DNA of 64,000 nt from a virus (taxonomy: Duplodnaviria; Heunggongvirae; Uroviricota; Caudoviricetes): IMG/VR virus record IMGVR_UViG_3300035520_000350, positions 32,466 to 96,465 of that record, one strand, 5' to 3'. Positions within the stretch are counted from its first letter, which is position 1. Every line of letters begins with the position of its first letter. A program made the translations under genes and the position numbers. Positions 5,940 to 44,500 of this stretch are shown piece after piece. The notes under the pieces are model-generated. The model had not been told where the DNA came from. It searched no databases and worked only from the letters and a program-made list of their open reading frames with translations.

Positions 5940-5990
5940 ACAGAAAGAGCGTAGGGTATATACCCTACGCTCCCCTTTTATTTTTTATAC
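5940..5990. terminator. Bidirectional terminator shared by the convergent genes 5153-5938 (+) and 5985-12023 (-).
   Basis: GAGCGTAGGGTATATACCCTACGCTC hairpin with an A-run on the left and a T-run on the right. Confidence 0.6.
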
Positions 5991-25987: not shown

Positions 25988-28900
25988 ATGTATATGAAAA
26001 TCATTAAACGTAGTGGTGTAGAAGATACTTTTGATCCCAGTAAGATTGATATAGCTATCAGAAAAGCTAATGATACAACATTAGATGATTCAGATAAGCT
26101 TAATGATGAACAGATTAAGGGTATCGTAGACTATATTATTAATTACGCTCAGGATTGTGGCAGATCTCTTAATGTAGAAGAGATTCAAGATCTCGTAGAA
26201 GAGCGTATAATGGATGCAGGTGCTTTTGAAGTTGCTAGATCATATATTACCTACAGATACAAAAGAGCATTAGTAAGAAAGACAAACTCGACAGATGATG
26301 CTATATTATCTCTCGTTAGTTGCAACAACGAGGAGATTAAGCAGGAGAATTCTAATAAGAATCCCTATATTAATAGTACTCAGAGAGACTATATTGCCGG
26401 AGAGGTAAGTAAGGATATTACTAGACGATTGTTACTGGATGAAGATATCTGGGATGCTCACGAGAATGGACTCATCCACTTCCATGATGCAGATTATTTC
26501 TTACAACCAATGACGAACTGTTTCCATTCTGATACTGAATTTGTAACGGATAAAGGAGTGGTAAGATTTGGAGATTGTCATGAAGGTGAGAGGATATTTG
26601 TAAGAAACATTACCGGAAATTATGTACCAGCGATGGTTCATAAATATGGTAAACAGAAGATGCAAACTGTTACCTTTAGATCGTGTAGAACTGTTAAGAC
26701 AGTTAGATGCACGTATAACCACAGATGGGTGTTAAAGGACGGAACTATTACTGAATCGTTAAAAGTAGGAGATTCATTGTATCCGACTGTAGATACAACA
26801 AATACACCAATCAATAATCCGTTTATGTTCTGCTTAGGGTTTGTACTTGGAGATGGATCTGATTTTGCCGGAAGTAATATATCAGAGCCTACTGGTGTAA
26901 GAGTTCGTTTATGCGGTAACAAAACTCAATATTTGCCTCATTTTACATTGGCAGGATTTGATATATCAAAAGAGAAATTTCATAATGGAGATATGTCTGT
27001 TACTTTTAGCAAGTATCCATTAAAAAAGAATTTTATTAATGGGTTTGGTTGGCGGTTTCTTTCTTTATCTGATAAGATTGATCTATTTAAGGGGTATTAT
27101 GCTGCAGACGGAAATACTCTTTCAAATGGAATAGCTACAGCAAATCATATATTAGCTCAGATGATAAGAGAGATTTCTGCTTTAGCCGGATACTACATAA
27201 CAAGTGAAAATTTTGAAATTAGGGACACTAATTTCAAGAAAGGAGCTAGTTTATGGACGTTCAGATTTATGAAACGTCAAAGTATTAATAGATGCTGGAA
27301 AGTAGAATCTATAGATAGATCTGATTATCACACATATGACGCTTGGTGTGTAGAAGAACCATCTACTCACACTTTTACTCTTGGAAATGGAATGGTCACT
27401 GGCAACTGTTGCCTCGTTAATCTAGAGGATATGTTGCAGAATGGCACTATCATCTCTGAAACAATGATTGAAACTCCTAAGAGTTTCTCTACTGCTTGTA
27501 ATGTAGCAACTCAGGCTATTGCACAGATTGCAAGCAACCAGTATGGCGGACAGTCTATTACTCTTTCCCATCTTGCTCCATTTGTTGATGTAAGTAGAAA
27601 GAAGATCATAAGGAAAGTAATAGAAGAGTTTGAGACTCTTGGCATTGAGTATACCGATGAGATGGTAAATAATGTTACCGAGTCTAGAGTAAAGGAAGAG
27701 ATCAAGAGAGGTGTACAGACTATTCAGTATCAGGTTATTACTCTTATGACTACTAATGGTCAGGCTCCTTTCATTACAGTATTCATGTATCTTGATGAGG
27801 TACCGGAAGGACAGACTAGAGATGACTTAGCAGCTATCATTGAGGAAACTCTTAACCAGAGATACTTAGGAGTAAAGAATGAGAAAGGTGTATATATTAC
27901 ACCGGCGTTTCCTAAGTTAATCTATGTCTTAGAAGAGGACAATATCCATGAAGATTCTAAGTATTGGTATCTTACTCAGTTAGCAGCAAAGTGTACTGCT
28001 AAGAGATTAGTACCGGATTACATCTCTGAGAAGAAGATGAGAGAGTATAAGAATGAAGATTGTTATCCTTGTATGGGATGTAGATCATTCTTAACTCCTG
28101 ATAGAACAGTAAGAAATTCTGCTAAAGCGTTGAACTACGAAGAAGGAAAACATAAATACTACGGAAGGTTCAACCAAGGTGTTGTTACTATTAATCTTGT
28201 AGATGTAGCTTGTTCTTCTAATGGAGATGAAGATGAGTTCTGGAGAATCCTTGATGAAAGACTTGAGTTATGCTATCGCGCTTTGATGGCTAGACATAAG
28301 AGATTAGAAGGAACTGTATCTGATGTAGCTCCTATCTTATGGCAGAACGGAGCTTATGCAAGATTAGAGAAAGGAGAAGTAATAGATCCACTTCTTCATG
28401 GTGGATATTCTACTATTTCTTTAGGATATGCAGGACTCTGTGAATGTACTGTAAGAATGACAGGAGTAAGACATACTGATCCTAAAGGAACTCCTTTTGC
28501 TTTAAAAGTAATGCAAAGACTTAACGATGCATGTGCTGAATGGAAAGCTAAAGAAGATGTAGACTTTAGTTTATATGGAACGCCGCTTGAGTCTACAACT
28601 TATAAGTTTGCTAAGTGCTTACAGAAGAGATTCGGTAAGATTCCTGGAGTTACTGATAAGAACTATATCACTAACTCTTATCATGTACATGTAACAGAGC
28701 AGATGAATGCTTTTGATAAGTTAAAGTTTGAATCTCAGTTCCAGGTATTATCACCAGGAGGAGCTATCTCGTATGTAGAAGTTCCTAATATGCAGAACAA
28801 TATCCCGGCTGTATTATCAGTGATTCAGTTTATCTATGATAATATCATATATGCTGAATTGAATACTAAGAGCGATTATTGCATGAACTGTGGTTTCGAT

Positions 28901-29032
28901 GGCGAGATTCAGATAGTAGAAGATGAAGACGGTAAGCTCGTTTGGGAATGTCCTTGCTGTGGAAACAGAAATCAGGACACAATGAACGTAGCTAGACGTA
29001 CATGTGGATTGACTGCCAATAGTCCACGTTAA
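25988..29032 (+). CDS. nrdD: Anaerobic ribonucleoside-triphosphate reductase (class III RNR, NrdD), interrupted by an intein.
   Basis: N-terminal ATP-cone (KIIKRSGVEDTFDPSKIDIAIRKA...). C-terminal 4-Cys zinc ribbon CMNCGFDGE...CPCCGN, then a glycyl-radical-like RRTCGL near the C-terminus. SD AAAGGAG. Confidence 0.75.
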   Translation: MYMKIIKRSGVEDTFDPSKIDIAIRKANDTTLDDSDKLNDEQIKGIVDYIINYAQDCGRSLNVEEIQDLVEERIMDAGAFEVARSYITYRYKRALVRKTNSTDDAILSLVSCNNEEIKQENSNKNPYINSTQRDYIAGEVSKDITRRLLLDEDIWDAHENGLIHFHDADYFLQPMTNCFHSDTEFVTDKGVVRFGDCHEGERIFVRNITGNYVPAMVHKYGKQKMQTVTFRSCRTVKTVRCTYNHRWVLKDGTITESLKVGDSLYPTVDTTNTPINNPFMFCLGFVLGDGSDFAGSNISEPTGVRVRLCGNKTQYLPHFTLAGFDISKEKFHNGDMSVTFSKYPLKKNFINGFGWRFLSLSDKIDLFKGYYAADGNTLSNGIATANHILAQMIREISALAGYYITSENFEIRDTNFKKGASLWTFRFMKRQSINRCWKVESIDRSDYHTYDAWCVEEPSTHTFTLGNGMVTGNCCLVNLEDMLQNGTIISETMIETPKSFSTACNVATQAIAQIASNQYGGQSITLSHLAPFVDVSRKKIIRKVIEEFETLGIEYTDEMVNNVTESRVKEEIKRGVQTIQYQVITLMTTNGQAPFITVFMYLDEVPEGQTRDDLAAIIEETLNQRYLGVKNEKGVYITPAFPKLIYVLEEDNIHEDSKYWYLTQLAAKCTAKRLVPDYISEKKMREYKNEDCYPCMGCRSFLTPDRTVRNSAKALNYEEGKHKYYGRFNQGVVTINLVDVACSSNGDEDEFWRILDERLELCYRALMARHKRLEGTVSDVAPILWQNGAYARLEKGEVIDPLLHGGYSTISLGYAGLCECTVRMTGVRHTDPKGTPFALKVMQRLNDACAEWKAKEDVDFSLYGTPLESTTYKFAKCLQKRFGKIPGVTDKNYITNSYHVHVTEQMNAFDKLKFESQFQVLSPGGAISYVEVPNMQNNIPAVLSVIQFIYDNIIYAELNTKSDYCMNCGFDGEIQIVEDEDGKLVWECPCCGNRNQDTMNVARRTCGLTANSPR
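26519..27406 (+). mobile_element. Intein of 296 aa with a LAGLIDADG homing-endonuclease domain, inserted after HFHDADYFLQPMTN of NrdD.
   Basis: Begins with Cys (CFHSDTEF) and ends ...HTFTLGNGMVTGN, followed by the +1 Cys (CCLVNL). Two LAGLIDADG-like blocks, LGFVLGDGS and LFKGYYAADGN, lie about 85 aa apart. Confidence 0.7.
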
Positions 29033-29467: not shown

Positions 29468-29839
29468 ATGACTTACTTAACTATCAAGAAGAATACTCAA
29501 AGTAAAGGACATGGAATAAGAACAGCATTAATACTCTCTGATAACGATAAATGTGGAAAGCCCTATACTTATAGGGAAACAGAGGAGATAATCAATTCTA
29601 CGAAAGTTTACTCTTCTGGTTTATTGATTTTAGGTACTGATATTTACAGAAAAGAGTACTTAGAATACTTATTACCTTTAGTAATAAGGTTTAAAAGAAC
29701 GTATCCTGATAAAGATGTTGTAGTGATTACTGATTCACTAGAGTTAGATGCAACAATAGGAGATACTGAATATACTAAGCAATTCAAGGAAGTGGTAGAT
29801 AGGATTATAGATCCTAGAGATTATGATGGACGTAGATAA
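29468..29839 (+). CDS. NrdG-like protein (activase fold) lacking the CxxxCxxC radical-SAM cysteine triad.
   Basis: GHGIRTALILSDNDKCGKPYTY aligns with E. coli NrdG GPGTRCTLFVSGCVHECPGCYN, with only one Cys retained. The downstream GLLILGTDIYRKEYLEYLLPLVIRFKRTYPDKDVVVITD resembles NrdG GISLSGGDPL...IWVWTG. This alignment is from memory. Confidence 0.4.
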   Translation: MTYLTIKKNTQSKGHGIRTALILSDNDKCGKPYTYRETEEIINSTKVYSSGLLILGTDIYRKEYLEYLLPLVIRFKRTYPDKDVVVITDSLELDATIGDTEYTKQFKEVVDRIIDPRDYDGRR

Positions 29840-29849
29840 AAGACGGAAG

Positions 29850-29900
29850 TAAGCCGTGGAGGTAATCAACCTCCACGGCTATACTCCTGACTTTTGTTCT
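29850..29900 (+). terminator. Rho-independent terminator.
   Basis: AGCCGTGGAGG-TAATCAA-CCTCCACGGCT followed by a weak T-run. Confidence 0.45.
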
Positions 29901-30036
29901 TGGAGAAGAAACAATGAAAGACATTACCATTAGACATACACATAGAGCCGTATAGGTGACAAGGGGTAAGAACCTATACTTCCTTCGCCAAAGGCTTTAC
30001 GATGTGAAAGGAGTTTTCACGGGAGGGACTTTAAAC

Positions 30037-30101
30037 ACCGCAAAGGTGGGATTCGAACCCACGAGCGCCAGTATGTAAATTTGCTGTTAGTCTAACGATA
30101 A
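30037..30101 (-). ncRNA. tRNA-like module: a perfect T-arm plus an acceptor-like 3' end, with no canonical D or anticodon arms. It contains the motif CTAACAGCAAAT.
   Basis: Minus sense reads ...GTTAGACTAACAGCAAATTTACATACTGGCGCTCGTGGGTTCGAATCCCACCTTTGCG. The T-arm is GTGGG-TTCGAAT-CCCAC. The module is only about 65 nt and abuts tRNA-Tyr. Confidence 0.35.
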
Positions 30102-30184
30102 TGGGTAGAGCTGGACTCGAACCAGCAATGCACGAATGCGACGGATTTACAGTCCGCTGCCTTACCAATTGGGCTCACCTACCC
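30102..30184 (-). tRNA. tRNA-Tyr (anticodon GTA), type II with a long variable arm.
   Basis: Minus sense reads GGGTAGG-TG-AGCC..GGC-A-GCGGA-CTGTAAA-TCCGT-[variable arm GCATTCGTGC..]-GCTGG-TTCGAGT-CCAGC-TCTACCC-A. All stems pair, with G-U wobbles at the stem ends. Confidence 0.7.
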
Positions 30185-30344
30185 GGGTGTGCTGTATTCA
30201 TTTCACATGTTTAAAAGATTTGCAGTCTTTCCTTTTTTGTTTGCTGGGAGTGAAACACTACAGCATTACATCAAATCATTTCTCATACGCGTGTCAATTT
30301 GCCTTAACCTCTTGGCTACATTGAAACTATAATCTAAGTTATAG

Positions 30345-30425
30345 AACCAACAGCAGGAGTCGAACCTGCGCTACAATCGTTAATTGGCGAATGTTTGCTG
30401 TTAAAGAAACCAATCTTTGATGCAA
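30345..30425 (-). ncRNA. tRNA-like module with a T-arm and the motif TTAACAGCAAAC 23 nt upstream. No canonical cloverleaf.
   Basis: Minus sense reads CTTTAACAGCAAACATTCGCCAATTAACGATTGTAGC-GCAGG-TTCGACT-CCTGC-TGTTGGT. Confidence 0.3.
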
Positions 30426-30896
30426 TTGATCTATTATAATCATCAACAACATTTCTCAATGTTATACACAGGAGCTACCTGTGTATATTCGGAGTTGAAC
30501 CGTTACAACCTAATTAAGTTTGCAGTTTGAAGAAACAACTGTTGATAATCATAAACATAAGTTAGTATCATGAAGTTATAACCGGAGGCATTAATCATAA
30601 TATTTTCCGCAATGCAGGCAGAGATTGCTGTTAGATCAACTTATTCGGTCATATAACAATCATGAATTAAGGTAATACTTCCTAAGGTGTTGCAACTGGC
30701 ATTAATCAGCGCTGTAACTGTGTCAGGTCACAGCCAAGATCCGTGTCTACTAAGAGTGGGTCCCATATTGGGTTTGCTGTTTGATCAACCTATCCAATTG
30801 TATAACACTTGTGAAAAGAATTATAGGAAGTATTAAAAATGGCAACCTTTCAAATGTAATTGTATGTGAGGGGAGGCCGCATACATCTAAAAGGTC

Positions 30897-30995
30897 GATG
30901 GATTTGTGGTAGGATTTGAACCTACGTAATACCGGGCGCACACAAAGGATTCACCTAACCCGACCGGTAGCTTAACCGAACTCAGCCACACAAAC
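30897..30995 (-). ncRNA. tRNA-like RNA of about 96 nt. Acceptor, type-II-like D-arm and T-arm are present, but the anticodon arm is replaced by a 6-bp helix (TACCGG/CCGGTA) enclosing 28 nt.
   Basis: Minus sense reads GTTTGTG-TG-GCT-GAGTTCGGTTA-AGC-T-ACCGG[TCGGGTTAGGTGAATCCTTTGTGTGCGC]CCGGTA-TTAC-GTAGG-TTCAAAT-CCTAC-CACAAAT-C. The D-arm resembles Ser/Leu-type tRNAs. No 7-nt anticodon loop can be drawn. Confidence 0.4.
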
Positions 30996-31039
30996 CCACT
31001 CTCAATTTCATTTCTCAACATTCATAAGTAGTCATGACA

Positions 31040-31300
31040 TCACCCCAAGGTAGTGAATTTACTTGACCACTTAAGCTTACGTCAAGGTGCTAAAGAAGAC
31101 CCACCTCCTACAGTGCGCACCAATCCCACGCGCCGCCCACCAGATAGCGGCGCAATATTAACGCGCAAATGAATCCAGATTAGCCGACCTCTACCAATAT
31201 CCGCCCTACGCTTAATACGTTACAGTTTAATCCGCCGCCACTCTGATTCGCAGTAGGGCAGCGCGATACGAGAAATAATTTTAGCGGACTCCCACAATAT
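31040..31300 (-). ncRNA. GC-rich structured element with nested GC palindromes in an otherwise AT-rich non-coding stretch. Candidate ncRNA of unknown class; the strand is a guess.
   Basis: GCGCCGCC-CACCAGATA-GCGGCGC hairpin at 31130-31153. A CCCTAC...GTAGGG stem around 31205-31253. No ORF in any frame. Confidence 0.3.
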
Positions 31301-31490
31301 GTAAGTTAACAAGTCTTGCTGTGTGAGAAACTTGAGAGACTGAAACACAAAACAAAAGAGAATAATGTTTTAATATGGCACCGCTGAGTTCTGAAGCAAC
31401 GGTGCCAATGACTAATGAGAGTATTGGATTGCAAATTTCTTTTGTAACCAATACTGAATAGTTATAAGTTTTGTAAATTAAAATTACAAT

Positions 31491-32498
31491 TTACTGTTCG
31501 GAAGTAGAATCAGTGGTAGTAGACGATGATGTAATGTCATCAGTGATATCGATGAAAGAGTTGGTATCACCAGTAACTTTTGGCAATGCACCATCCCACT
31601 GCTCGTACTTAATCTTTTCAATAAGTTTGTCTGTTAGTGAAGCGCTAATTTCTTCATTAGCCTGGGCTTCTGCCTGAGCCTGAATAAGAAGTGCATCTGC
31701 TTCCGCCTGTGACTGGATAAGTAAAGCATCTGCCTCACCCTGAGCTTTTACTGCAGCCTGTTCTGCTTCGATCTGTGCTACCTCTTTCTCTTTCTCTGCA
31801 TTGATCTTTGCCGTATCTGCTTCAATCTGAGCAAGCTCTTTCTCCTGCTGAGCATTTACCTTCTTCTGGATTGCTTCTCTTGTTTCATCATCCGGATCGA
31901 TGTTGATCAATGAAGCATTGTCAATAATAATACCATAGGGAGCAAACTTATCCTGTAGATACTCAGTGAGTTCTATATTAAGGGAAGCACGTTTATCTCC
32001 CAAGATATCGGTAACTGCATACTGCGCCGTTACTTCTTTTGTCCAGCTAATAATATTGGGCTTAATAAAGCTATCCTTTACATCTTCACCGGATCTTCCT
32101 TTAAAGCGGACGAACGTATCAGCTACCATAGATTCGTCAAAACGATATGTAAAGGTAAGACTTACTGTAAGACCTTTACCATCAGAAGACGGCACTTCAA
32201 AGCTGTCATCGTCTTTAGAATCTCCCTGTTTATCAGCGGTAAGATAAGACTGCTCAATACCGATACTGTACTTGGTGATCTGCTTTGTAGGTCCAATAAG
32301 GTGCCAGCCCTGGGAAAGGGTAGTACCTTCTACGCCACCGTTCATATTATATACTACTCCTACATATCCTGCAGGAATCTTTACAAGACTCATCTTAAGT
32401 AAGATAAGAACTACTACAATGATAATACCTAAAGCAATACCACCTACTAATCCTTTCTTACTAGTCTTTACTACTTCTTCGTCATAATCCCTACTCAT
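31491..32498 (-). CDS. SPFH/band-7 (stomatin, prohibitin, HflK/C-like) membrane protein, 335 aa.
   Basis: N-terminal TM segment. SPFH core TVSLTFTYRFDESMVADTFVRFKG...IIIDNASLINIDPDDETREAIQKK. C-terminal coiled-coil AQIEAEQAAVKAQGEADALLIQ with repeats. Confidence 0.7.
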   Translation of the reverse strand: MSRDYDEEVVKTSKKGLVGGIALGIIIVVVLILLKMSLVKIPAGYVGVVYNMNGGVEGTTLSQGWHLIGPTKQITKYSIGIEQSYLTADKQGDSKDDDSFEVPSSDGKGLTVSLTFTYRFDESMVADTFVRFKGRSGEDVKDSFIKPNIISWTKEVTAQYAVTDILGDKRASLNIELTEYLQDKFAPYGIIIDNASLINIDPDDETREAIQKKVNAQQEKELAQIEADTAKINAEKEKEVAQIEAEQAAVKAQGEADALLIQSQAEADALLIQAQAEAQANEEISASLTDKLIEKIKYEQWDGALPKVTGDTNSFIDITDDITSSSTTTDSTSEQ

Positions 32499-32650
32499 TT
32501 CTTCTTGTTATCCTCCTTAGAATCTTCATTCATCTCTTCCATTGCATCGCTCCAAATCTTATATAAGAACTTTCCGACTGGCTTAAATGCAAATGCTAAT
32601 AAGAACCATAAACCTACGGCTCCTAATACTACAAGTATTACCAAGACCAT
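32495..32650 (-). CDS. Small membrane protein, 51 aa, translationally coupled to the SPFH gene (NfeD/YuaF-like partner).
   Basis: Minus-strand ORF MVLVILVVLGAVGLWFLLAFAFKPVGKFLYKIWSDAMEEMNEDSKEDNKKK with SD AAAGGAGG. Its stop TGA overlaps the SPFH ATG as ATGA. Confidence 0.45.
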   Translation of the reverse strand: MVLVILVVLGAVGLWFLLAFAFKPVGKFLYKIWSDAMEEMNEDSKEDNKKK

Positions 32651-33254
32651 ATCATTATCCTCCTTTGTAATTGGGTTTTACTTCAAAAGTTTAAACTTTA
32701 GTAAAGTACAATATCAACAACTAATCAGTAGATTCAATTGTTAAAAGGTTTGAGTATTCTAAGGAAGATACAGATATACTTACCCCCAGTAAGGAGGTGT
32801 TCGTCCTTGTCAACCCCCAATACAATCTTTTGTATTATTCAAACTAACCCCTTCCTCGTTGGTGCACAAGCGAGGTTTCATTGAGTTATCTCATTTTGAT
32901 AAGGGCAAAAGACATATAGCCAAAGTATGCAAGTGATATTCTTTCTATATTCCCTATAGAAAGTGGTATCTCTTTAGAGGTTTATCTGAATCTCAAGATA
33001 GTTGGATCTATATCGGGAATAAAATTCACAAAAGACCATCCAAAACACGATACTCTTGTAGTACCGAAAAGGGCTGATTTCCCACTTCCAATCAACCATC
33101 TTACATTGAACAGTGGAGAGATGAGGAAACAGCCCCTTCTTTACGTTTCCCTTTTCAGCATAATTTGTTGTATGGATGTACACTCCTTGCTTACGCAATG
33201 AAACAACAGGGAAATGACAAAGAGAATTTAAGATTGACGATTAAACCGCTAGTT

Positions 33255-33360
33255 TCTCTAACAGCAAACACCTTTTTCAAATAACCGGTTTTGTCACTGG
33301 TTCGAGCCCAGTTATTAGGAGTATACCCCACTTCTAGTATAGCTCAGCAGGGAGAGCAAA
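33255..33360 (+). ncRNA. Plus-sense copy of the tRNA-like module (CTAACAGCAAAC, then 27 nt, then the T-arm ACTGG-TTCGAGC-CCAGT) followed by the D-arm-like TAGCTCAGCAGGGAGAGC. It sits immediately upstream of the Ro60-like gene.
   Basis: Motif at 33258-33269. T-arm at 33296-33312. D-arm-like segment at 33340-33357. Confidence 0.3.
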
Positions 33361-33465
33361 CTGCCAAAGAAAAGAGAGAAATGATTATGCGGTTTTCGTA
33401 TATAGAAACACTTGTTGTACTATCAGCATAAAAACAAAACCTGTACAATGAAAGGAGTATTAAAA

Positions 33466-34953
33466 ATGAGTATGAACTTAGCAGACGCATTAAGAGAAGA
33501 CTCGAAATGGACAGTAACAGAGAACGGAGCAGATGCAAAGAATACCACTGGTAATCCTTTGCTTGATCTGTATGCAACTATTGGATCGTTAAGACAACGT
33601 GATGAAAAAGAAATCATCATGAAGTTTATCTTAGCATTCAATCATGATAAGCAGGGAGCAGTTCGGTGCTTATTCTATGCTCGTGATATCAGAGGTGGAC
33701 TCGGCGAACGTAATACGTTCAGAGTAATCTACAGATACATGGGCGATGCAATGCCTGAGATCGTAGAAGAGTATCTCGGTCTTATTCCGGAGATGGGAAG
33801 ATTTGATGACTTCTATGCTTTGATCGGAACAAAGGCAGAGGATGCTATGTGGGGATATGTAGGTGAGCAGCTTTCGCTTGACCAGAAGTCTATGATCGCT
33901 GGTAAGCCGTGTAGCTTATTAGCTAAGTGGCTTAAGAAAGCTGATTCTAAGAGTAAAGATACCAAGGCTCTTGGAATCTATACAGTAAAGAAGCTTGGTA
34001 TCTCCGTCTACGAGTACAAGCGGTTATGCAATAAACTCCGCAAGTACATCAACGTAGTTGAGGTAAAGATGAGTGAGAATAGGTGGACCAAGATTGAGTA
34101 TGATAAGGTTCCATCTAAAGCTATGCTCAACTATACCAATGCATTCAAGAGGCATGATGAACAGGGCTTCTCTAAGTATATCTTGAATGTAGAGGAAGGA
34201 ACCCAGAAGATCAACACCAGCACTCTGTATCCTTATGATATCGTGCATAAGTATCTGTACGAGACAGGATCAAAAGAGTTGGAAGTAATGTGGGATAATC
34301 TTCCGGATTATCTTAACGGTGTAGAGTGCAATGCTTTAGTCATTGCAGATACATCCGGATCTATGACGTGGGACGGCGGTATGCCTATCTCAAGTGCAGT
34401 AGGTCTCGCTATCTACTTTGCAGAACGTAATAAAGGAGCATTCCATAACCTCTTTATGACGTTCTCATCTCAGTCTAAGATTCATTCTATCGATGGATTG
34501 AAAGGACTGGCTCAGAAGATTAATTTCGTAAAGTCTTCTGATTCATCTTGGTGTGGTAGTACTGATCTTGAAGCGGCATTTACAAGGGTTCTCTACGTAG
34601 CAACACAGAACAAGGTTCCGAAGGAAGAGATGCCCAAAGCATTCATCGTTATCTCTGATATGGAGATCGACAGAGCAACAGAAGATGATAATGAGCATCG
34701 GCAGACATTCTACGATGCTATGAGAGCAAAGTATGCTGTGTTTGGTTATGATCTTCCGAAGATTATCTTCTGGAATGTAAATTCTCGGCATGATGTATTC
34801 CATTCTGATGATCAGAATGACAATACGTTACTTGTATCTGGTCAGTCAGCTAGTACATTCAAGAATATCATCCAGTGCATTGATAAGACTCCGGTAGAGA
34901 TGATGTATGCTGTACTCAACTCTGAGAGATATTCTGTAATCAATATCGAGTAG
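33466..34953 (+). CDS. vWA-domain protein with Ro60/TROVE-like architecture: an alpha-helical N-terminal domain plus a C-terminal vWA with a MIDAS motif. Possible Rsr/Ro60 ortholog or DUF2828-like.
   Basis: The MIDAS motif LVIADTSGSM aligns with Ro60 VLALDVSASM. Further Ro60 vWA-like blocks are WCGSTDLEAAF, KAFIVISDMEIDRA and KIIFWNVNSRHDVFHSDDQNDNTLLVSGQS. The likely start is ATG 33466 with SD AAAGGAG; the ORF track starts at 33412. GC is above the local average. Confidence 0.5.
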   Translation: MSMNLADALREDSKWTVTENGADAKNTTGNPLLDLYATIGSLRQRDEKEIIMKFILAFNHDKQGAVRCLFYARDIRGGLGERNTFRVIYRYMGDAMPEIVEEYLGLIPEMGRFDDFYALIGTKAEDAMWGYVGEQLSLDQKSMIAGKPCSLLAKWLKKADSKSKDTKALGIYTVKKLGISVYEYKRLCNKLRKYINVVEVKMSENRWTKIEYDKVPSKAMLNYTNAFKRHDEQGFSKYILNVEEGTQKINTSTLYPYDIVHKYLYETGSKELEVMWDNLPDYLNGVECNALVIADTSGSMTWDGGMPISSAVGLAIYFAERNKGAFHNLFMTFSSQSKIHSIDGLKGLAQKINFVKSSDSSWCGSTDLEAAFTRVLYVATQNKVPKEEMPKAFIVISDMEIDRATEDDNEHRQTFYDAMRAKYAVFGYDLPKIIFWNVNSRHDVFHSDDQNDNTLLVSGQSASTFKNIIQCIDKTPVEMMYAVLNSERYSVINIE

Positions 34954-35423: not shown

Positions 35424-35538
35424 AATCCTCTAACCTTTTTGTCTCACTTTACTTTATTTTTTCTTTTCACCCCTAATATGGAGTATCCCGAACATCTACA
35501 TAATCATGAAAAATTTTAGTAAAGGAGGCAAAGAGAGT

Positions 35539-38500
35539 ATGGCTAATGCATTACAATACGTCAAAAATGTGGGTAAGTCTTTTGGCTACTCAACAATAGA
35601 GATGCTAGAGAGTTATAACCCACAGATAAAAACCTTAGCCTCTCAAACTAAGGCTTTTGGTTCTGATCTATACCAGACTATTGATGATTTCAAAGCTAGT
35701 ATGACAGACACTGGATCGGAAAAAGGTTTACTTAGTTTAGGAAAAGATAGTATAAGTGAACTTAAGAAGAATCTGTTTGAAGATTTGAAATCTGGTAATT
35801 GGTATAACAAAGCCAGAGCAGAAGAAGTAGAAGGTGCTGCCGTTGCCGATATGTTTGGTTTCGACGACGAAGATTTTAATCTTGATGACTTAGATCTTGA
35901 CTTCTCTGATGATGATTTTGGAGAAGATAATGATGACTTAGCAGCCACCTTTGTTGAAGCGGAGAAAGAGTCTACCGATTCTATTGTAGGAGCTTTAGAT
36001 GAAGTAGGTAATAAAGCTTCACATGCTGTTGCTACTGCTACAGTAAGTTCTGCTGACTTCATTGTTACTTCTAATAGACAGAGTAGTAGAGCATTATATA
36101 GTCTTAACCAGAGAGGATTCCATGATCTTGCTACTGGTTTAGGAGCTATCAATGCTAATATATCTACTATAGTTTCTATGGGCGAACCGTTAACAGCTCA
36201 TATGCAGAATGCTGCAACGTTCTATACTAAGTCTAGTGAATATCAGGATAAAGTACTGGAGAGACTTGACATTCTTGTCAAGTTTGCTAGTCCTGAATCT
36301 AAGACTACTAATTATAGAAAAGAAGGTACTCTTGATTCTATTCTTAATGATGGAGTATTAGATCTTTCCTCATACTTTGATATGCTTATGGGAAGATTCA
36401 AAGACTTTAAAGACGATATTATCGGTATGCTTGATATGCTTGGTGGTCCTGAAGCAGCCATTAAGATGGTTACTGCATCTCCACTTAAGTTCCTTACTGA
36501 TAATCTTGTAAAGTTTGTATTTCCTACAATGATTAAGAATAGTATGCAACAGTTCAATCAGCATCTTGAATCTTTCTTTGGTGCAGCTATTGATAAACTT
36601 CAGTATGCTACTCCAGATGGTGATATTGGAAATCTCTTCGATATGATAAGAGATTACGTAATGCCTAAGAGTGGATATAAAGATAAGATTGATACTAGTA
36701 TGTATCTTAAGGGTAAAGCAGAGTGGACTGGTAAAGACCAGAAAGCTTTGAGAGATGTAATCCCTACTTACCTAGCTCAGATCACTTCTGCAGTAACAGG
36801 TAAACCTGAGACAAGATATGATTATGAGAGAGGTAAGTTTATTACCATATCTGGAATAAAGAATGAGTTTGATAGCAAAGCTAAGAGATATGCTCAAAGT
36901 GCAGGTGGAGACTTCTTATACGATGCTTTAGATGTAGTAAGTAAGTTGGGTCTTAATCCGGAAGATCAGAAGAAGATGAAAGATCAGATCAATGAATTCT
37001 TCCTGAATATGTTTAAGACCGGTAAAGGTGAGATAATGAATCTCCAGAAAGATAACTTTGAATATCAGAAGTATGGATTAGATGATGATAGTGTCAAAGT
37101 TCTGAGAGATATGCTTAATAGCTATGCTAAACTTCATAAGACAGATGTAGCAAACATGGCGGCTACTGAAATGCGCCTACAGAGGGATAGATATGGCGAT
37201 GAGCTTAGAGGTATAGAAGCTAACGGTGGTATCTTTACCTCTCTTTTTGATAACTCTTCTTTACCTACTACTGGAGAAAAGGCTGTTAAAGTAAGACCTG
37301 GTGGAATACTTGGAGTAGATAAGTATAATCATGATCTATTCTTCTACCTTCAGGGTATCTATCAGTATACTGGTCATCTTTCCGACAATATTGGAATACT
37401 TGGTGGAGGATCACCAATCAATCCTAAGGGAGGAAGTTATCGTAATAGAGGTAAAGGTGTTGAACCTACTCCTATTAAGGATATTCCTTATGAGTCTACT
37501 GAGGAAGAGAAGGAGAAAGCTTCTAAGGATAACTCCAATGCTCAGCAGTCTACTGCTCAGTCTAAAGCTCAATCTGTTTATGATACTATCTTTAGTAGAC
37601 ATGAATACGATGAGGGATTCACTGGACAGAGAGAGAAGAAAGATAGACGAAAAGAAGAAGCTAAGTCTAAGTTAGATGCTGACTTAGATGCAGGTGTAAT
37701 CTCAGAAGAGGAGTATAAAGAGAAGATTAAAGAACTTGAGGAAGAATCTAGCAATGCATCTACAGAAAAGTTCTTTAAACGTATGAAAGAAAAAGGTGCT
37801 AAGAGTGAGAAACTTTCTGGTATCAGAAAGGTTATGGATAAGATTCATGGCATCTTTAATAAGCCTGCTGAAGTAGTTAGTGAGATATTAGGAGCAGGAG
37901 AGATATCTATGTATCATCTTCTTTATGGCAAAGGAGGGGATGACGAGAAGGGTATCTTTGCTTACTTCTATGAGAAAGCAGATAGTCTCTTTACTAAGTT
38001 TGATAAATTCTTCGAGGATAAGTTTGACTTCAGTATCAAGTCTTGGTTCAAGAAAATGTTTGGTAAAGCCAAAGATTCAGATTTTGTTCAAGAGACAGGA
38101 GAAGAACTTAAGAATGCTGGAAGAAGTGTATGGGATGATGTAAAGAGATTCACTGGTTTTGGTACCCCTAGTGATGAGAAGGAAGATAATGGAGAGGGAG
38201 AAACTGAGCCTATAGATAATGGTCAAGCAGCAACTGGACGTAAAGTAACTAAGACTGGTATTGTTGCTGTATCTGAAGGTGAGATGATTATCCCATCTGA
38301 ATATAATCCTTATTATCATGGAACTAATGACAAGAAGACTCAGCTTAAGAACGAAGCTAATGCAATAAAGAAGTTCTATGGTAGATATGCTAGAGGTGGA
38401 TTTGCGGGAGCTGCTAAACAAAGCTATGATCCTGAAACAGAAGAGTGGATATACTACGATGCAGAGGGAAATGAGATCGGTAGAAGAGAAGCTACTGAGA

Positions 38501-41500
38501 AAGAGAAGCTTAAGCAGAAAGGTAAGTTTGAATCTGGTAATTCTCATGGACGTACTAAACGTAACTTCTATAGACAGAAGGGTAAGAATCCTAAGAACGT
38601 TAAGGATTTTATCTTTGGTTCTGCAGCTCAGCTTGGTAATGATCTTGAAGATATTCTCAAAAGATTTAAACCTAAGAAAGATGAAGATAGTATCATTGAT
38701 AAAGTAGTCAATGAAGAGAATAGAAAAAGACTCAAAGAAGCTAATCTACCAGAAGAAGTAGTTAAGAATCGTGGTGCTATGGGTGCTGGTGCTCTTATAG
38801 GAGCAGGAGCTTCTATATTAACTGGTGCTGTAGTAGGTCCTCTTGCTGGAGCAGCTATTGGAACTGGAGTGGGTCTTGTAGTAAGATCTGAGAAAGTTCA
38901 GAAAGCTTTATTCGGTGAGGTGGATGAAAGAACTGGAGAAAGACAAGGAGGTATACTCTCTAAGAAAATATCTAATTTCATTGTAGATCAAGTTCCAAGT
39001 ATTGGTAAAGGAGCAGGAGCTGGTGCTATTGGTGGTTTATTTATGGGATCACCTATCATTGGTGCTATCGTTGGTGGCACTGTAGGATTTGTATCTAGCT
39101 CTGAAAAAGCTAAAGAAGCTTTATTTGGTAAACGAGATGAGAATGGTAATTGGATTAACGAAGGACTTATCAATAGTGAGATACAAAAGAAGGTCAAAGA
39201 AGTAGCTCCTAATATTGGAGCTGGTATGATCGCTGGAATGATTGGTGGTCCTTTCGGTATTGCCGGAAACCTTATTGTAGGTGGTGCTTTAGGATATGTG
39301 TCTACCACTGATTCCTTCAAAGATATGCTTCTTGGTAAGAAGGATAAGGATGGTAAGAGGCAAGGTGGATTAGTAGGAGAGATTAGAACTTACTTCTTTG
39401 GAAAGAAAGAAGATGGTGAGAAGCAAGGCGTTCTTACCAGTATCACTGGTATCTTTCAGAAAGTAGGTAATGAGATCTCTATCCACTCTAGAAATATCTT
39501 TAAGACTATTGGTAAGACAATAAGAAAGATAGTATCCGCTGGAGTTAAGTCTACATTAGGTCAGTTTATTGCTACAAGTCCTATTGGTAAGATAGGTAGA
39601 GCTGTAGGCAAAGGTGCTACAGCAATAGCTAAGTTACCATTTAAAGCAGTAAGGAGCACTCTTTCTGGAGTAGATTCTGCATTAGGTAAGAGAGCTTTGA
39701 AGAGAGGCTATGGACTGCTTAATAGTGACGGAAGCAAGATGACAGCTAAGGAAAGATTAGCAGCAAGAGAAGACTATGGCATGAATGAGTCTGTTAAATT
39801 CAGACTTAATAAGTCTTATCAGTCTAATAGAAATCTTGATCAGTACTTAATGGATGCTGATGAGACTCAGTTAAATGAGTTAAAGAGTGTCTTAGAGTAC
39901 TATGAAGATCCTACTAAGAAGTATGATAACGATGAGAGAGCTTATAAGAAAGAGTTTGCTAGTAAGATCGAAGAGTACGGAATTAGTCCAGAGACCGCTG
40001 TTAGATTAGAGAAGTTAGCTGTTGGAAAAGGTAAGTTTAAACCTGATGAGAATATCTCTACTATTCTTGCTAATGCTACTGATAATAAAGAACAGGCACA
40101 AGAGTTAGAGAATATCTTTAATGATATTACTTCTACTAGAATGGGTAGAGTAGAAGCATTAAAGGATAAGGATAAAGCTCGTAAAGACTTACTTGACAAG
40201 TCAGGTATCCTTGGTAAAGTAAAAGGTGTTGATATCAATAGTGACTCTGATATTAGAGAAATGCTTAGCCTTATCAATACTGAGATTGAGGATAGAACTA
40301 AGCCTGATGAAGAGAAAGATAAACAAGATCAGGTAGAACGTGAGGAAACTAATACCGAAAACATCACTACTATTGCTGATGTAATCCAGAAGATCTATGA
40401 TTATATCACTGGTAAAGATGATTATGAAGAAAGAGTTCCTGAGGATACACGTAATGCTATACAAGAAGCGATGGATAATACTGAGCAATCTGTTAGAGCA
40501 GCTAGTCCGTCTAGTGTTACTAATGAAACAGAAGAATCTACAAACACTACTACAGAATCTACTGATAATGGTGCTGGAGAGACCGAACCTATCGGAGAAA
40601 CAGAAGAAGCTGCTGTATCTGAAGGTGAGACTATTATTAATTCTAGAGGTTATAGAAGACCTTCCAAGATTAAGAATGCTATTAACAGTATCAGAGGTAA
40701 GTTCCATAGATTTGTAGGAAGATTTGCAGAAGGAGGTATTGTAGGAGAGTCTTCTGATGAAGAGTTTACTAATCCAGTAGATCAGACTAGATCTATTGTT
40801 GCTAATGCAGTGAATCTCTATACTACTGGTAAGAATGGTTTTGTCTTAGTAGATAGAGATGAAGATAAAGCAGAAGTAAAAGAGTCAGAAGATAAGTTAG
40901 AAGAGAATAAAGAGACAGCTAATACTGCTAGAGAAGCAATAGACAATGCTAAGGATCTTACTAAAGCTAAAGCTAATACAGATGATGGTGGACTTAAAGA
41001 TAGTAAGAGTGGTATTATAACTCAAACAGATGCTTTAGGTAATATCTATCAGATGAAAGAGAACAACGAAGGTGAGCTGGAGATGGATCTTTCTGATTCA
41101 CAAACTCAGCAAGCTATGGAGTCTCAGAGTAAGTTTAAAGAGGCTATATATTCTATTCCGTTACTTGGTGCTGGAATTAAAGGTATCAGTGGATTAATGG
41201 GTTCTCTTAAGAGTGGCTTATTAGGAGATGGAGAAGAGGGAGAAAGTAAGAGTCTGTTATCTACTCTTATTGAAAGCCTTACTGGAGAAGATGGTGTCCT
41301 TAGCGGATTATTCAGCTTCTTTACTAATTCTCCTATTGGAACCGCTGTAAGTACAGTTCTTAGTAGAGTAAGTCTTAGTGGAGTATTAACTGGTATTGGA
41401 TTCCCTGCATTGATTGCATCTGCATTCACTGGTGCTTTTGATGATTTAGGAGCATCTTTATCTGAGAAGATATCTGCTCTTAAGGGTAATGAAACAGAGG

Positions 41501-44500
41501 GTAACGGGACTCTGGATAATAATAAGAAGTACTTCATCGATGGTAAAGAGATCGCTGTAGATGAAAATGGCGAATTCATGAAGAACGAAGATGGAGATTA
41601 TATTGCTGTAGATGGAACAATACTATCTAAGGATGAGAACATTGAATCTTATGGTACTGATACTAGAATCAGTACACAGTTGAAGAAGAATGCTATCTTA
41701 AATACCGGTGGTGTTGCTGCTACTGCTATTGCTTCTGCAGGAAACTTTGTAAAGAAACTTGCTACTGGAGAAAAGGGTACTTATACTTCTTCTACTGCTG
41801 GTAAAGCTATATTAGATGCTAGTAGCTCTATGGCTAACTCTGTTATGGCTACTATCACTAAGCTTCTTGAAAAGATTCCTACAGTATTGAGTAAGATCCC
41901 ATTCATTAAGAAATGGGTAAACGAAGAGAGTTGTACTACAATCTGTGAAACTCTTTCTAAGAATCTTCAGTCTGCTGTTACATCTGCAGGTAATGGTATT
42001 ACTAAAATAGCTGAGAAACTTGGTAAAGTATTTGCAGTAATTAAGGTAGTTAATGTAATTGCTCAAGGTATTGATGCCTGGGGCAATGCAGAAAGCATCT
42101 TAGGAATTGTAGATGAGGCTACTACTGGACAGAGAGTTATTGCTGTACTTATTGCTGTAGTGAATGCTTTGATACCTGTTATTGGAGATCTTATTCCTAA
42201 TAAGGTATTAGTAAATATCTTTATGGAAATAGCTCCTAAGATTGGTATTGATGTATCTGGTCTTGAGGAACAGAGAGAAGAAGCTAAGGCTATTGTAGAT
42301 CAGTATAATGAAGAAACAGGATCTGATCTTACTATTGAAGCTTATAACCAGATGAATGGTAAAGCTGGTGTAATTACTAAAGTTAAAAACTGGGGATCTG
42401 GATTAGTAGCTAATATCAAAGAGAAAGGCTTTGGTACTGCTGTTAGTAATGCTGCTAGTGATATAGGTACTTCTGTAAGTAACTATGTATCAGATAAGGT
42501 TACAAACTTCAAAGAAACATTTGAAGAGAGTGGTCTTGGAGAAGCTGTTGCTAGTACATTAGACAGTATATTACCTGGTCCTATCGGAGATCTTGCTGGT
42601 AATGTGGCAAGAGTTACATCGTTAGCTTTATCTGGTGATGTCAGTGGAGTACTTGGCTTTAATATGGTAGATGTAGATGAGAATAGTGGAGTATTATCCA
42701 AGATTATCAATACTATATTGAGTACTATAGTCAAGATTCCAGAGACTCCTATTGCTGTATTATTCAAAGGTGCTCATGCTGTATTCAATGGAATCAAGAG
42801 TATTGTATCTAAAGTTACCGGATACGTTACTGATACTGTCAATATGATGAACACTGTTAAGGAAGATACTGTTACACTTGTTAATGATCCTAACTCTACA
42901 TTGTCTGATTTCTTTGATTTCAGTGTTTATAAGGATGATGAGGATAATCCAATAGGTGGACTTAGTAAAGTTATAGCAGTATCTACTAGAATAAGCATGT
43001 TTGGACAGATGATTGTGTCCAAGATTGGAAAATCTATTGCTGAGTTTGTGGGAGGTGTTGCAACTAAGATAAAGAATACTGCTACTGCGGCTTGGTCTGA
43101 TAAAGATGCTCTAAAAGAAACTGCTTTAAGCGGAGATGTATCTGGCTTATGGAGTCAAGAAATAGAATTGCCTGAAGACACTCCTGTCAATGGATTCTTT
43201 AAGGTAAGTCATTTCTTAAATAAGATATCTTATATGCCTTTAGCATTCTTTGTCAATGTTGGACATAAGATATCTGACTTTGTAAGTGGTGTAGCTGATA
43301 AGGTAAAAACTAATGTAGGATCTGTAGCTACAGATTACAGTAATCTTAAGGATATAGCAGAATCAGGAGATGTATCTGGCATATGGGATTACACTCATGA
43401 AGAGACAGAAGATTCTCCACTGAATGGTTTTGTTAAAGCAGCTCTGTTTATGAATAAGCTAAGCTTTACACCTAATGCTTTGTTCCATATGGTAGGTAAT
43501 AAGATTAGTGATTTCATTAGTCCTAAGATTGATACTGCTAAATCTGATTACTTAGTATTGACTGAAGGTACTGAAAACCTGAAATCACTCTCCTCAGATG
43601 GTGATATTTCAGGTGTTTGGAATGCAGAATCTCCCAAATTTACAGATGGAGGCATCTTATCACCACTTTATAAGGCTATATATAATGTGCAGAAAATCTT
43701 CTATAGTATTACTGCAATTATCCATAAGATATTTGGATTCATTAGTGATACAATAGGAGGAATCAAAGATAAGTTTGATGACGTTGTTTCTACAGTTAGT
43801 GATACAGTAGACAGCGTTAAAGAGAAGGTATCTGGAACTATTGATAATGTCAAAGATACAGTGTCTAACGTTGCTAATGGAGCATTCCAAAGCGTTAAGA
43901 ACTGGCTGACAGGAAGTGGCTCTGGATTACCAGTAAGCAAAGCTAAGAAGTATAAAGGTGCTGGTTCTAATAAGAATGAGATGTTTGTATCTCAGATTAG
44001 TGACCAGTATAGTAGTATTCCATTCGGAAATTCTACAGTAGGTGATATTGGTTGTGGCCCTGCTGTAGCTACCATGATTGGTAACTTTGAGAAACCTGGT
44101 TCCATTAATATGAAGACTGCTATTAGTGAAGCTAAGGGATATGAAGATGAGAAAGGAACTACTGCCGATTACTTTAAGGAAGTACTAAATAAGAGAGGTT
44201 TATCTAGCAACTATATTGATACACAGAAAGCCACAGGTCAGAAAGATCTTGTTACTGATCTTGCTAATGGTAAGCCTGCTGTATTACTTGGAGAAGATTC
44301 TACAAACGACTCCAAGGAAGCTTCACCTTTCGGACCTACAGGTCATTATGTAATGGCTAAAGGTTTTGATGATAAAGGTAATATTATCATTGAAGATCCT
44401 GAATCTGATACACCTGATAAGGCTTATAGTCCTAATATCTTAAGCAAAGTTAATATGGCTGTAACGACAGATCAAGTCGGAGAAGAGAACACAGATGAGA

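Follow-up and report, generated by a model that had tools for sequence, protein, structure and literature searches.

The stretch of DNA analysed here (the window; 64,000 nucleotides (nt) of the IMG/VR record IMGVR_UViG_3300035520_000350) is part of a 243-kb phage-like metagenomic contig. A megablast search of positions 29500-31500 against 50,697 phage records returned no match, so the phage has no close cultured relative among them. Between the nrdD/nrdG anaerobic ribonucleotide reductase genes on the plus strand and a Band-7/SPFH gene on the minus strand, the window carries an array of RNA-like modules marked by the 7-mer ACAGCAA. All of the modules lie within 3.6 kb of an open reading frame (ORF; 33466-34953) for a Ro-like protein; three of them (M8, M1, and M9) are directly upstream of this gene on the same strand, and the seven others are on the opposite strand. 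As described below, the ACAGCAA modules are probably a Y-RNA-like family with a new recognition motif, and Ro-like proteins of the DUF2828 branch would be their partners.

The non-coding stretches of the window and of L005, a syntenic relative whose Ro-like protein is 65% identical, were split at each ACAGCAA. A recurring layout was found, 5'-GUU[N4-6]-(N1-3)-ACAGCAA-[cargo 20-300 nt]-[complement of N4-6]AAU-G-3'. About ten modules are present in the window when variant motifs are counted, three on the plus strand (33145-33450) and seven on the minus strand (31331-29928), the latter interleaved with tRNA-Tyr and a second tRNA-like gene. In all ten, the 5' and 3' ends, placed by prediction, pair into a terminal helix of 7-9 bp. 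The features of the region are as follows.

33145-33216, plus strand: module M8 (72 nt, from the stem scan); helix GUUUCCCU/AGGGAAAU, then G; degenerate motif UUUCAGCAUAA (UCAGCAU); short cargo.
33252-33383, plus strand: module M1; helix GUUUCUCU/AGAGAAAU, then G; motif UAACAGCAAAC (ACAGCAA); permuted tRNA body.
33414-33450, plus strand: mini-module M9, GUUGUAC-UAU-CAGCAUA-...-GUACAAU-G; motif UCAGCAU.
33466-34953, plus strand: gene of the Ro60-fold protein (495 aa); Pfam DUF2828 and DUF7788/vWA; PHROG 850; presumed partner of the modules.
31009-31331, minus strand: module M6; helix GUUUCUCA/UGAGAAAU, then G; motif CACAGCAAG (ACAGCAA); G+C-rich cargo of 300 nt.
30901-30995, minus strand: tRNA-like gene between M6 and M5; 28-nt anticodon loop; no ACAGCAA; Infernal tRNA score 43.2 bits.
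30700-30789, minus strand: module M5 (90 nt); helix GUUGAUCA/UGAUUAAU, then G; motif AACAGCAAAC (ACAGCAA); hairpin cargo, no T arm.
30589-30640, minus strand: module M4a (52 nt), a paralogue of M5; helix GUUGAUC/GAUUAAU, then G; motif UAACAGCAAUC (ACAGCAA).
30450-30536, minus strand: module M4b; helix GUUUCUU/GAGAAAU, then G; variant motif ACUGCAA.
30277-30410, minus strand: module M3; helix GUUUCUU/GAGAAAU, then G; motif UAACAGCAAAC (ACAGCAA); permuted class-II-like tRNA body.
30199-30256, minus strand: module M7 (58 nt); helix GUUUCAC/GUGAAAU, then G; variant motif CCAGCAAAC (CCAGCAA).
30102-30184, minus strand: canonical tRNA-Tyr(GUA) with a long variable arm, between M7 and M2; ARAGORN call, Rfam tRNA score 52.3 bits.
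29928-30096, minus strand: module M2; helix GUUAGAC/GUCUAAU, then G; motif UAACAGCAAAU (ACAGCAA).
29852-29880, minus strand: G+C-rich hairpin of 11 bp followed by UACUUCCGUCUUUU, identified from the sequence; also a chance Rfam match.

M9 abuts the Shine-Dalgarno sequence AAAGGAG (33451-33457) of the Ro-like gene. The same position in L005 (7940-7985) is occupied by GUUGCACA...UGUGCAAU-G-aaaggag, and the gut-phage loci are arranged alike. M8 is among the least certain modules because its motif is degenerate. M5 and M4a have the 3' 11-mer TGATTAATGCC in common; for M4a, an alternative 9-bp pairing, GUUGAUCUA/UAGAUCAAU, would close a unit of 217 nt (30640-30424). The helix of M2 can be extended to 14 bp (30103-30090 with 29935-29922).

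The motif and T-arm coordinates given in the first-pass annotation were all verified. The 10-mer TAACAGCAAA occurs exactly three times within 3.2 kb (30080-30089 and 30394-30403 on the minus strand, 33259-33268 on the plus strand), compared with about 0.12 exact copies expected in the window (128 kb for both strands). The view that the repeat is an RNA-like module and not random sequence is supported. One-mismatch copies are located at 30624 and 30773 on the minus strand. The T-arm consensus GGTTCRANTCC was found six times in the window against 0.09 expected, with five of the six between 30049 and 30922 on the minus strand. The T arms at 30046-30062, 30353-30369, and 30909-30925 were confirmed, as were motif-to-T-arm spacings of 17, 24, and 27 nt and the canonical tRNA-Tyr; a fifth T-arm-like site at 30491-30501 had been overlooked.

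The unit itself had to be redefined. The motif had been described by its place 5' of a T arm; it goes instead with a terminal helix that covaries, and over half of the modules lack a T arm. A supposed partial fifth copy at 30238 is real, but it belongs to a complete module (M7, 30256-30199) with the variant CCAGCAA. The near-palindrome GTTGATCAAC is no palindromic site; it corresponds to the 5' strand (GUUGAUC) of the terminal helix in two paralogous modules.

The letters of the terminal helix vary between copies while complementarity is kept, as in GUUAGAC/GUCUAAU, GUUUCCAC/GUGGAAAU, GUUGCACA/UGUGCAAU, GUUAAGCU/AGCUUAAU, and GUUUCUUC/GAAGAAAU. Each motif copy of the window and of L005, which has 13 copies, is preceded by a helix strand and followed downstream by its complement and a G. 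ACAGCAA is predicted to be single-stranded, 1-3 nt 3' of the 5' helix strand, and the G after the 3' strand is conserved. By comparison, the window has 14 further ACAGCAA copies outside this region, all without such a helix, and unrelated control 7-mers gained one in 4-8% of cases. A generic best-stem statistic (70% versus 26% at a score of at least 7) also supports the helix, with a high background that makes it weak for any single locus. Pairing of ACAGCAA with a downstream UGCUGU or UUGUUG into a long Y stem was considered and dropped, since the would-be partner lacks conservation and predictions leave the motif unpaired.

The cargo differs from module to module. In M1, a T arm (33296-33312) is followed by a closed acceptor stem of 6 bp, UA, and a canonical D arm (GCUCAGCAGGGAGAGC). 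In M3, the order is a T arm (30369-30353), an extended closed acceptor stem, UA, and a D arm of class-II type (GCCAAGAGGUUAAGGC). M2 contains a T arm (30062-30046), a short closed stem, and extra hairpins, and M4b contains a T-arm-like hairpin (GGTTCAACTCC, 30501-30491) and a closed acceptor-like hairpin of 10 bp; the D arm is absent from both. The cargo of M1 and M3, in degenerate form also that of M2 and M4b, is a tRNA body with a closed acceptor end and the opening shifted to the anticodon side, which is the design of YrlA RNAs. M5, M4a, M7, M8, and M9 carry short hairpins only, and the tRNA-like domain is absent from these and from M6. The M6 cargo (31018-31320, minus strand), which is G+C-rich within an A+T-rich phage, folds at -107 kcal/mol (z = -2.57) and is moderately structured; it had no Rfam match and no counterpart in L005. 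M4b is exactly enclosed by a near-perfect helix of 15 bp (30553-30539 with 30450-30435, minus strand; UAUGAUUAUCAACAG/GUUGUUGAUGAUUAUA), which looks like a processing site for a double-strand-specific RNase.

None of the ACAGCAA modules of the window was called as a tRNA by ARAGORN, by Rfam in gathering mode, or by Infernal in evalue mode. ARAGORN and the gathering mode each reported tRNA-Tyr only, and the element at 30901-30995 and a YrlA signal emerged in the evalue mode. A normal-order cloverleaf above 29 bits (RF00005) was found in the region only at tRNA-Tyr and at this motif-less element. It had been stated that the T-arm elements cannot be folded into cloverleaves. This is correct for the motif-bearing ones, which are circularly permuted and were never called as tRNAs, but not for the T arm at 30909-30925, which is part of the full-length tRNA match of 43.2 bits. 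No cloverleaves had been seen because the tRNA-like modules are circularly permuted and the other modules are not tRNA-like. A call as an ordinary tRNA or pseudogene, which the first-pass annotation had named as evidence against a shared module, was thus obtained for the motif-less element alone. That element has normal acceptor, D, and T arms and an encoded ...UCCA end; its anticodon arm (30968-30931) has a 28-nt loop that holds a small hairpin of its own. As it lacks ACAGCAA, it is not simply the tRNA-embedded form of the relatives described next.

In some relatives, Infernal reported tRNAs of 113-130 nt that contain the motif (38-52 bits), none of which was called by ARAGORN. In L035, a closed hairpin with ACAGCAA lies within the anticodon loop of an otherwise normal tRNA (3911-3789, minus strand; 46.3 bits), and in a second tRNA (3780-3661, minus strand; 38.1 bits) it lies between the D arm and an intact anticodon arm. 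Further motif-bearing tRNAs were found in L071 (119-237 and 330-449), L092 (3002-3114), and L063 (6304-6422); GUU is an example of the anticodon where the anticodon arm is intact. Helix strands that seemed to pair across adjacent units in tandem arrays (e.g. L035) proved to be local hairpins inside tRNAs, and some automatically delimited modules were chimeric. The L035 tRNAs and the window modules are one secondary structure with different chain ends, the acceptor being open and the handle closed in L035, and the acceptor closed and the handle open in the window. Tandem copies of a tRNA with insert would yield the window form by a shift of the gene boundary. The family resembles circularly permuted and insert-bearing tRNA genes in that it exists in two circular permutations of one structure. 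Known permuted tRNA genes of red algae are re-circularised and processed into ordinary tRNAs; in contrast, no sign of re-circularisation was found here, the acceptor is closed by a short loop, and several members lack the D or anticodon arm.

Evidence for a family of RNAs was obtained from other phages. Relatives found through the protein contained full-length, sub-threshold YrlA matches (31-41 bits) among tRNAs directly upstream of the gene, each after an ACAGCAA. A scan of IMG/VR for ACAGCAA, 8-38 nt, and a T arm gave at least 120 loci; among the matches listed, a Ro-like gene 22-52% identical to that of the window was present within the fetched few kb in 32 of 120 loci. The intergenic DNA beside the gene in those loci holds arrays of 2-8 modules with the same layout and lineage-specific helices, and many family members keep a hairpin like an anticodon arm ahead of the T arm. 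An RNAalifold alignment and a covariance model, R1, were made from 23 modules of other phages with no window sequence, L071_390 having been excluded prior to alignment. The alignment showed the T arm, a closed acceptor stem of 7 bp, and the D arm, with 5-14 sequences per acceptor pair changed on both sides. The top four matches of R1 in the 64-kb window were M1 (54.6 bits, E about 1e-7, full length), M3 (46.1 bits, E about 3e-6), M2 (26 bits, E 0.011), and M4b (17 bits, E 0.45). The tRNA-like modules of the window are homologous to this phage-wide family.

The closing helix was examined in an alignment of 77 distinct family members made by R1, which contains no closing-helix pairs. Its four outer pairs were paired in 74.7% of cells compared with 54% in shuffles (0/500). 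The covariation score was 0.534 compared with 0.218 in shuffles (0/500), and every slid register scored lower. These results bear on the possibility that ACAGCAA and its flank are a DNA-level signal, i.e. a promoter, transcription-factor site, or recombination site in a tRNA island, with accidental helices. The short motif does border each unit on its 5' side, where a promoter would be expected, GTT...AATG helices alone occur at chance frequency, and the near-palindrome could hint at a DNA site for a protein. Nevertheless, the two strands of the helix covary in an alignment made without reference to their pairing, and the same hairpin and motif occur within tRNA bodies of relatives, which would be senseless for a promoter. 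The motif is also conserved across phages of hosts with very different transcription machineries (Actinobacteria, Firmicutes, and Proteobacteria), its strand relative to the gene is asymmetric by 16-fold (see below), and a sigma-70 promoter and terminator scan of the region was at chance level. A DNA-level signal is accordingly very unlikely, and the promoter role proposed in the first-pass annotation is disfavoured.

A second possibility is that the array is decaying debris, namely pseudogenised or rearranged tRNA genes and a repeat spread by duplication, with no present function. The loss of the D arm in M2 and M4b and the degenerate motifs of M8, M9, M4b, and M7 fit such decay. Global pairwise alignments of window and L005 modules gave scores near zero, so that cargo sequences are not alignable and no one-to-one orthology is assignable, and a 'pseudo tRNA-Tyr' is annotated nearby in Felix O1-like phages. 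However, phages with Ro-like proteins of only 22-65% identity have retained the handle (helix, motif, and G) and exchanged the cargo, and compensatory changes preserve the acceptor, T, D, and closing helices. Moreover, 2-13 copies per genome are maintained across lineages, a number that neutral debris would not keep. Of the explanations considered, debris is the least probable.

The product of ORF 33466-34953 is 37% identical to mycobacteriophage proteins annotated as 'Ro-like RNA binding protein', and PHROG 850 is described as 'RNA-binding protein'. It has the fold of Ro60, a ring of helical repeats followed by a vWA domain. No TROVE domain (PF05731) was found in it; Pfam at E<=10 gave only DUF7788, DUF2828, and a weak VWA_2. 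Sequence and profile searches of the PDB returned no Ro60, Foldseek against the PDB matched only C-terminal vWA domains, and a search of NCBIfam gave no match. The array is thus adjacent to the gene of a Ro60-fold protein that is divergent in sequence.

Linkage of the motif to this gene was determined at 76 IMG/VR loci chosen by the protein alone, which are mostly from one gut-phage clade and represent 147 distinct sequence contexts. The flanks of these loci hold 456 copies of ACAGCAA in the orientation of the gene and 28 in the opposite orientation, where chance would give about 26 per strand. Most copies cluster in the 1.5 kb upstream, and 2-6 copies lie within 700 nt at every one of the 76 loci. 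R1 matched 59 of the 76, always upstream on the gene's strand. Among cultured phages, modules flank the Ro-like gene in Mycobacterium phage Clautastrophe, Listeria phage LP-048, Felix O1-like phage UAB_Phi87, Staphylococcus phage S-CoN_Ph8, Bacillus phage FADO, Campylobacter phage CP39, and Enterococcus phage TJE2. These are cultured phages of seven genera, and no module is annotated in any of the seven records. Tiny 'hypothetical protein' ORFs over modules in S-CoN_Ph8 (L211 4019-4108 and 4238-4366) and UAB_Phi87 (L128 6352-6609) are probably mis-annotations.

The tRNA-Tyr gene recurs beside the Ro-like locus in distant phages (the window, L005, Clautastrophe, and CP39), and Felix O1-like phages have an annotated 'pseudo' tRNA-Tyr there. 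Clautastrophe resembles the window in having Band-7 and tRNA-Tyr neighbours too. The sites of tRNA-Tyr and Band-7 recurrence are 30102-30184 and 31491-32498 in the window, L130 1741-2812, L213 1796-1881, and L005 5236-5320. As a speculation, this recurrence may be linked to defence systems that cleave tRNA-Tyr.

A further possibility is that the modules do their work independently of the Ro-like protein, as tRNA-shaped decoys or as substrates for processing; they might, for instance, sequester tRNA-cleaving defence nucleases or tRNA-modifying enzymes of the host. The helix and ACAGCAA would then be a signal for processing or stability, recognised by an RNase of the host or another one of the phage, and only a shared tRNA island would lie behind the linkage to the gene. 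Modules are indeed interleaved with real tRNAs in the window and in relatives, tRNA-Tyr recurs by the locus in distant phages, an RtcB-like ligase is encoded near the locus in LP-048, the hairpin and ACAGCAA occur inside otherwise normal tRNAs, and most window modules are opposite to the gene's strand. On the other hand, the linkage is to the gene itself, since the last module abuts its ribosome-binding site in the window, L005, and the gut-phage clade. In S-CoN_Ph8, three modules (4041-4250) directly follow the gene and the annotated tRNA closest to them is about 2.1 kb downstream, and no tRNA is annotated in the fetched FADO stretch. Over half of the modules contain nothing tRNA-like, which leaves the conserved handle unexplained by a pure tRNA decoy, and no single host RNase common to Actinobacteria, Firmicutes, and Proteobacteria would explain an identical 7-mer. 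Decoys acting without the Ro-like protein are therefore considered unlikely.

The modules were compared with known Ro60-associated RNAs. Ro60 binds Y RNAs through a stem formed by the ends and a conserved sequence, YrlA-type RNAs mimic tRNA, and Y RNAs tether Ro60 to PNPase (PMC4201824; PMC12135203). YrlA genes (RF02553; Chen et al. 2014, PMC4201824) sit within 4 kb of Ro60 on the same strand and are defined by a conserved GNCGAA(N0-1)G near the 5' end, a putative Ro60 contact. Similarly, the present modules would be small RNAs within a few kb of a Ro60-fold gene (Rsr in the YrlA case), their 5' and 3' ends pair into a stem, and a conserved sequence stands beside the 5' strand. The permuted tRNA-like domain of YrlA, i.e. 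T arm, closed acceptor stem, two linker nt, and D arm, is present in M1 and M3 and partly in M2 and M4b. Several YrlA genes per genome are possible, some without the tRNA-like domain. Salmonella YrlB keeps the protein-binding module and lacks the tRNA-like domain, as do the hairpin-cargo modules.

The differences are equally clear. The handle is ACAGCAA instead of GNCGAA(N0-1)G, the terminal helix is short (7-9 bp) without a long bulged stem, and the partner is DUF2828/DUF7788 instead of TROVE. The arrays are larger (about 10 in the window and 13 in L005), and most window copies are on the strand opposite the gene, although same-strand copies prevail at the 76 loci of relatives. On Rfam YrlA, M1 scored 22.5 bits (E 0.19; 33288-33362, plus strand, immediately 3' of the motif copy; model positions 23-86) against a threshold of 69, which no member attains, and the other modules had no match. 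The modules thus resemble Y RNAs, yet they stay below the Rfam threshold and lack GNCGAA; likewise, the protein lacks TROVE by sequence, yet it has the fold. The motif type appears to track the protein subfamily, with GNCGAA/CGAA accompanying TROVE-type Ro60 in the literature and ACAGCAA accompanying the DUF2828 type in this analysis, which fits co-evolving recognition.

The closest phage precedent is phiRo60 of Thermus phage phiLo (PDB 9L5Y), which binds two upstream Y-like RNAs (Yrl1/Yrl2) and the host PNPase (PMC12135203). Both systems have a phage Ro60-fold protein with Y-like RNA genes directly upstream. The phiLo particle has a TROVE-domain Ro60 and two RNAs with CGAA in a stem-bulge-stem, whereas motif, protein subfamily, and copy number differ in the predicted RNA family described here. 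As the phiLo system is proposed to hijack the host exoribonuclease, a similar role may be proposed for the window system by analogy. The ppl defence system is countered by gp130, the Felixounavirus orthologue, whose Y RNAs have only been surmised to be among the neighbouring 'tRNAs' (10.1101/2024.10.10.617714). The UAB_Phi87 module L128 6383-6513 (R1, 68.9 bits) is a specific candidate for the RNA partner of gp130-type proteins.

A strikingly similar layout, with nearly the same motif, is found in dictyostelid Class I RNAs (RF01414; Kjellin et al. 2021, PMC7919456), which have a 5' G, a covarying end-to-end stem of 6 bp, an unpaired CCUUACAGCAA after the 5' strand, variable cargo, and a (C)UGU tail. 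They are eukaryotic, reported as unique to Dictyostelia, with a DUSE promoter about 60 nt upstream, and they bind the RRM protein Rnp1A/CIBP (PMC7919456). The phage modules likewise have a short end stem, ..UUACAGCAA right after the 5' strand, a variable middle, and a conserved 3' tail; an example is the short Listeria phage module uaG-GAAUC-ua-ACAGCAA...GAUUC-C-UGU. Short phage modules (L129 3649-3704, L063 7327-7386 and 7414-7496, L068 788-850, and L005 5484-5526) align end-to-end to RF01414 at 22.6-23.7 bits, sharing CUUACAGCAA and a ..CUGU-like tail. These scores are far under the threshold of 41.5 bits (E-values of 5-9), and RF01414 had no match at E<=10 in positions 29500-33800 of the window. 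We know of no link between Class I RNAs and a Ro-like protein. The resemblance may be convergent or due to chance, the shared layout being no proof of common descent, and homology with the phage modules is unlikely. One of the four reported interactors of Class I RNAs is DDB_G0281243, the function of which is not known. It can be imagined, with little confidence, that the helix, ACAGCAA, and G handle defines a large unannotated RNA class of free small RNAs, permuted tRNA mimics, and 'tagged' tRNAs as specific ligands of DUF2828-branch Ro-like proteins, in which the Class I RNAs would be the eukaryotic members and DDB_G0281243 a candidate for their eukaryotic DUF2828/vWA partner. No account of the ACAGCAA handle, of modules that are not tRNA-like, of their arrays, or of the form embedded in tRNAs was found in the literature searched.

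Two of the roles suggested in the first-pass annotation are best in keeping with the evidence, namely a Y-RNA-like tRNA mimic and a protein recognition site. The former agrees with the weak YrlA match of M1, the sub-threshold matches in relatives, and the Ro60-fold neighbour; for the latter, the likely reader is the Ro-like protein and not a homing or processing enzyme. That leading interpretation was thus partly supported, being right in substance, but corrections were required to the unit, to how far the array extends, and to the partner protein. On this reading, the region would encode a battery of small structured RNAs of one family, and the helix, ACAGCAA, and G would form a handle read by the Ro60-fold protein 33466-34953. 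The protein may be loaded with varied RNAs, cut as separate molecules from two transcription units. The first would be M8-M1-M9, the leader of its own mRNA, and the second the minus-strand unit Band7-M6-tRNA-like-M5-M4a-M4b-M3-M7-tRNA-Tyr-M2, ending near the hairpin at 29880-29852. From its sequence, this hairpin is likely the end of the unit (Band-7 gene, then RNA array); the terminator scan left it out of its list because the T run does not follow directly. If Ro60-Y RNA particles are a guide, the cargo may tether the protein to host binders of tRNA-shaped RNA, such as exoribonucleases and tRNA enzymes, or act as a decoy during infection.

Several observations weigh against the assignment to a Ro-bound, Y-RNA-like family. 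RNA ends, expression, and binding are predictions; the best YrlA score is only that of M1, and the canonical GNCGAA is absent; and seven of the ten modules are opposite to the Ro-like gene, unlike typical YrlA genes. A motif-free scan of the A+T-rich window for GTT...AATG helices of at least 7 bp found 53 compared with 56 expected. Because the helix alone is at chance, it is informative only together with the motif, and the boundaries of M6, of the long M4 versus M4a, and of the degenerate-motif modules M8, M9, and M4b are uncertain; the 3' end of M6 is less certain also because its long-range closing helix is only moderately unlikely by chance. The motif counts at the 76 loci are not independent because the loci are mostly from one gut-phage clade, and Vibrio phage D484 has the gene with no convincing module within 2.5 kb.

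Other features of the contig and its relatives were recorded. NrdD (25988-29032, plus strand) is one ORF of 1014 aa, in which the Pfam NRDD match falls in two stretches, the best from residue 468, with a long stretch after the ATP-cone; in L005 (462-3556), nrdD is split into two ORFs around an extra ORF of 208 aa. These layouts suggest an intein, intron, or homing-endonuclease insertion. Two giant ORFs encode 2012 aa (5985-12023, minus strand) and 3599 aa (35506-46305, plus strand), the second beginning about 550 nt after the Ro-like gene. A type II hammerhead ribozyme (48.1 bits; Rfam threshold 37) was found in the related phage contig L003 (26-92, minus strand), about 6 kb from its Ro-like gene.

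To our knowledge, all Ro60-Y RNA particles described so far, from animals, bacteria, and a few phages, have a handle of the GGUCCGA/GNCGAA type. The present finding points to a second recognition code, composed of another 7-mer, a short covarying helix, a DUF2828 Ro-fold protein, and interchangeable cargo RNAs, up to a dozen per array. Many workhorse phages carry this code without annotation, including Felix O1 relatives, P100-type Listeria phages, cluster L mycobacteriophages, Campylobacter Fletchervirus, and Staphylococcus, Enterococcus, and Bacillus phages; in these, small spurious ORFs often cover the modules. The modules provide concrete candidate RNA partners for gp130-type proteins, open to deletion, mutation, and pull-down. 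The two permutations, one Y-RNA-like and the other a tRNA with insert, offer a rare view of a tRNA mimic arising from tandem tRNA genes.

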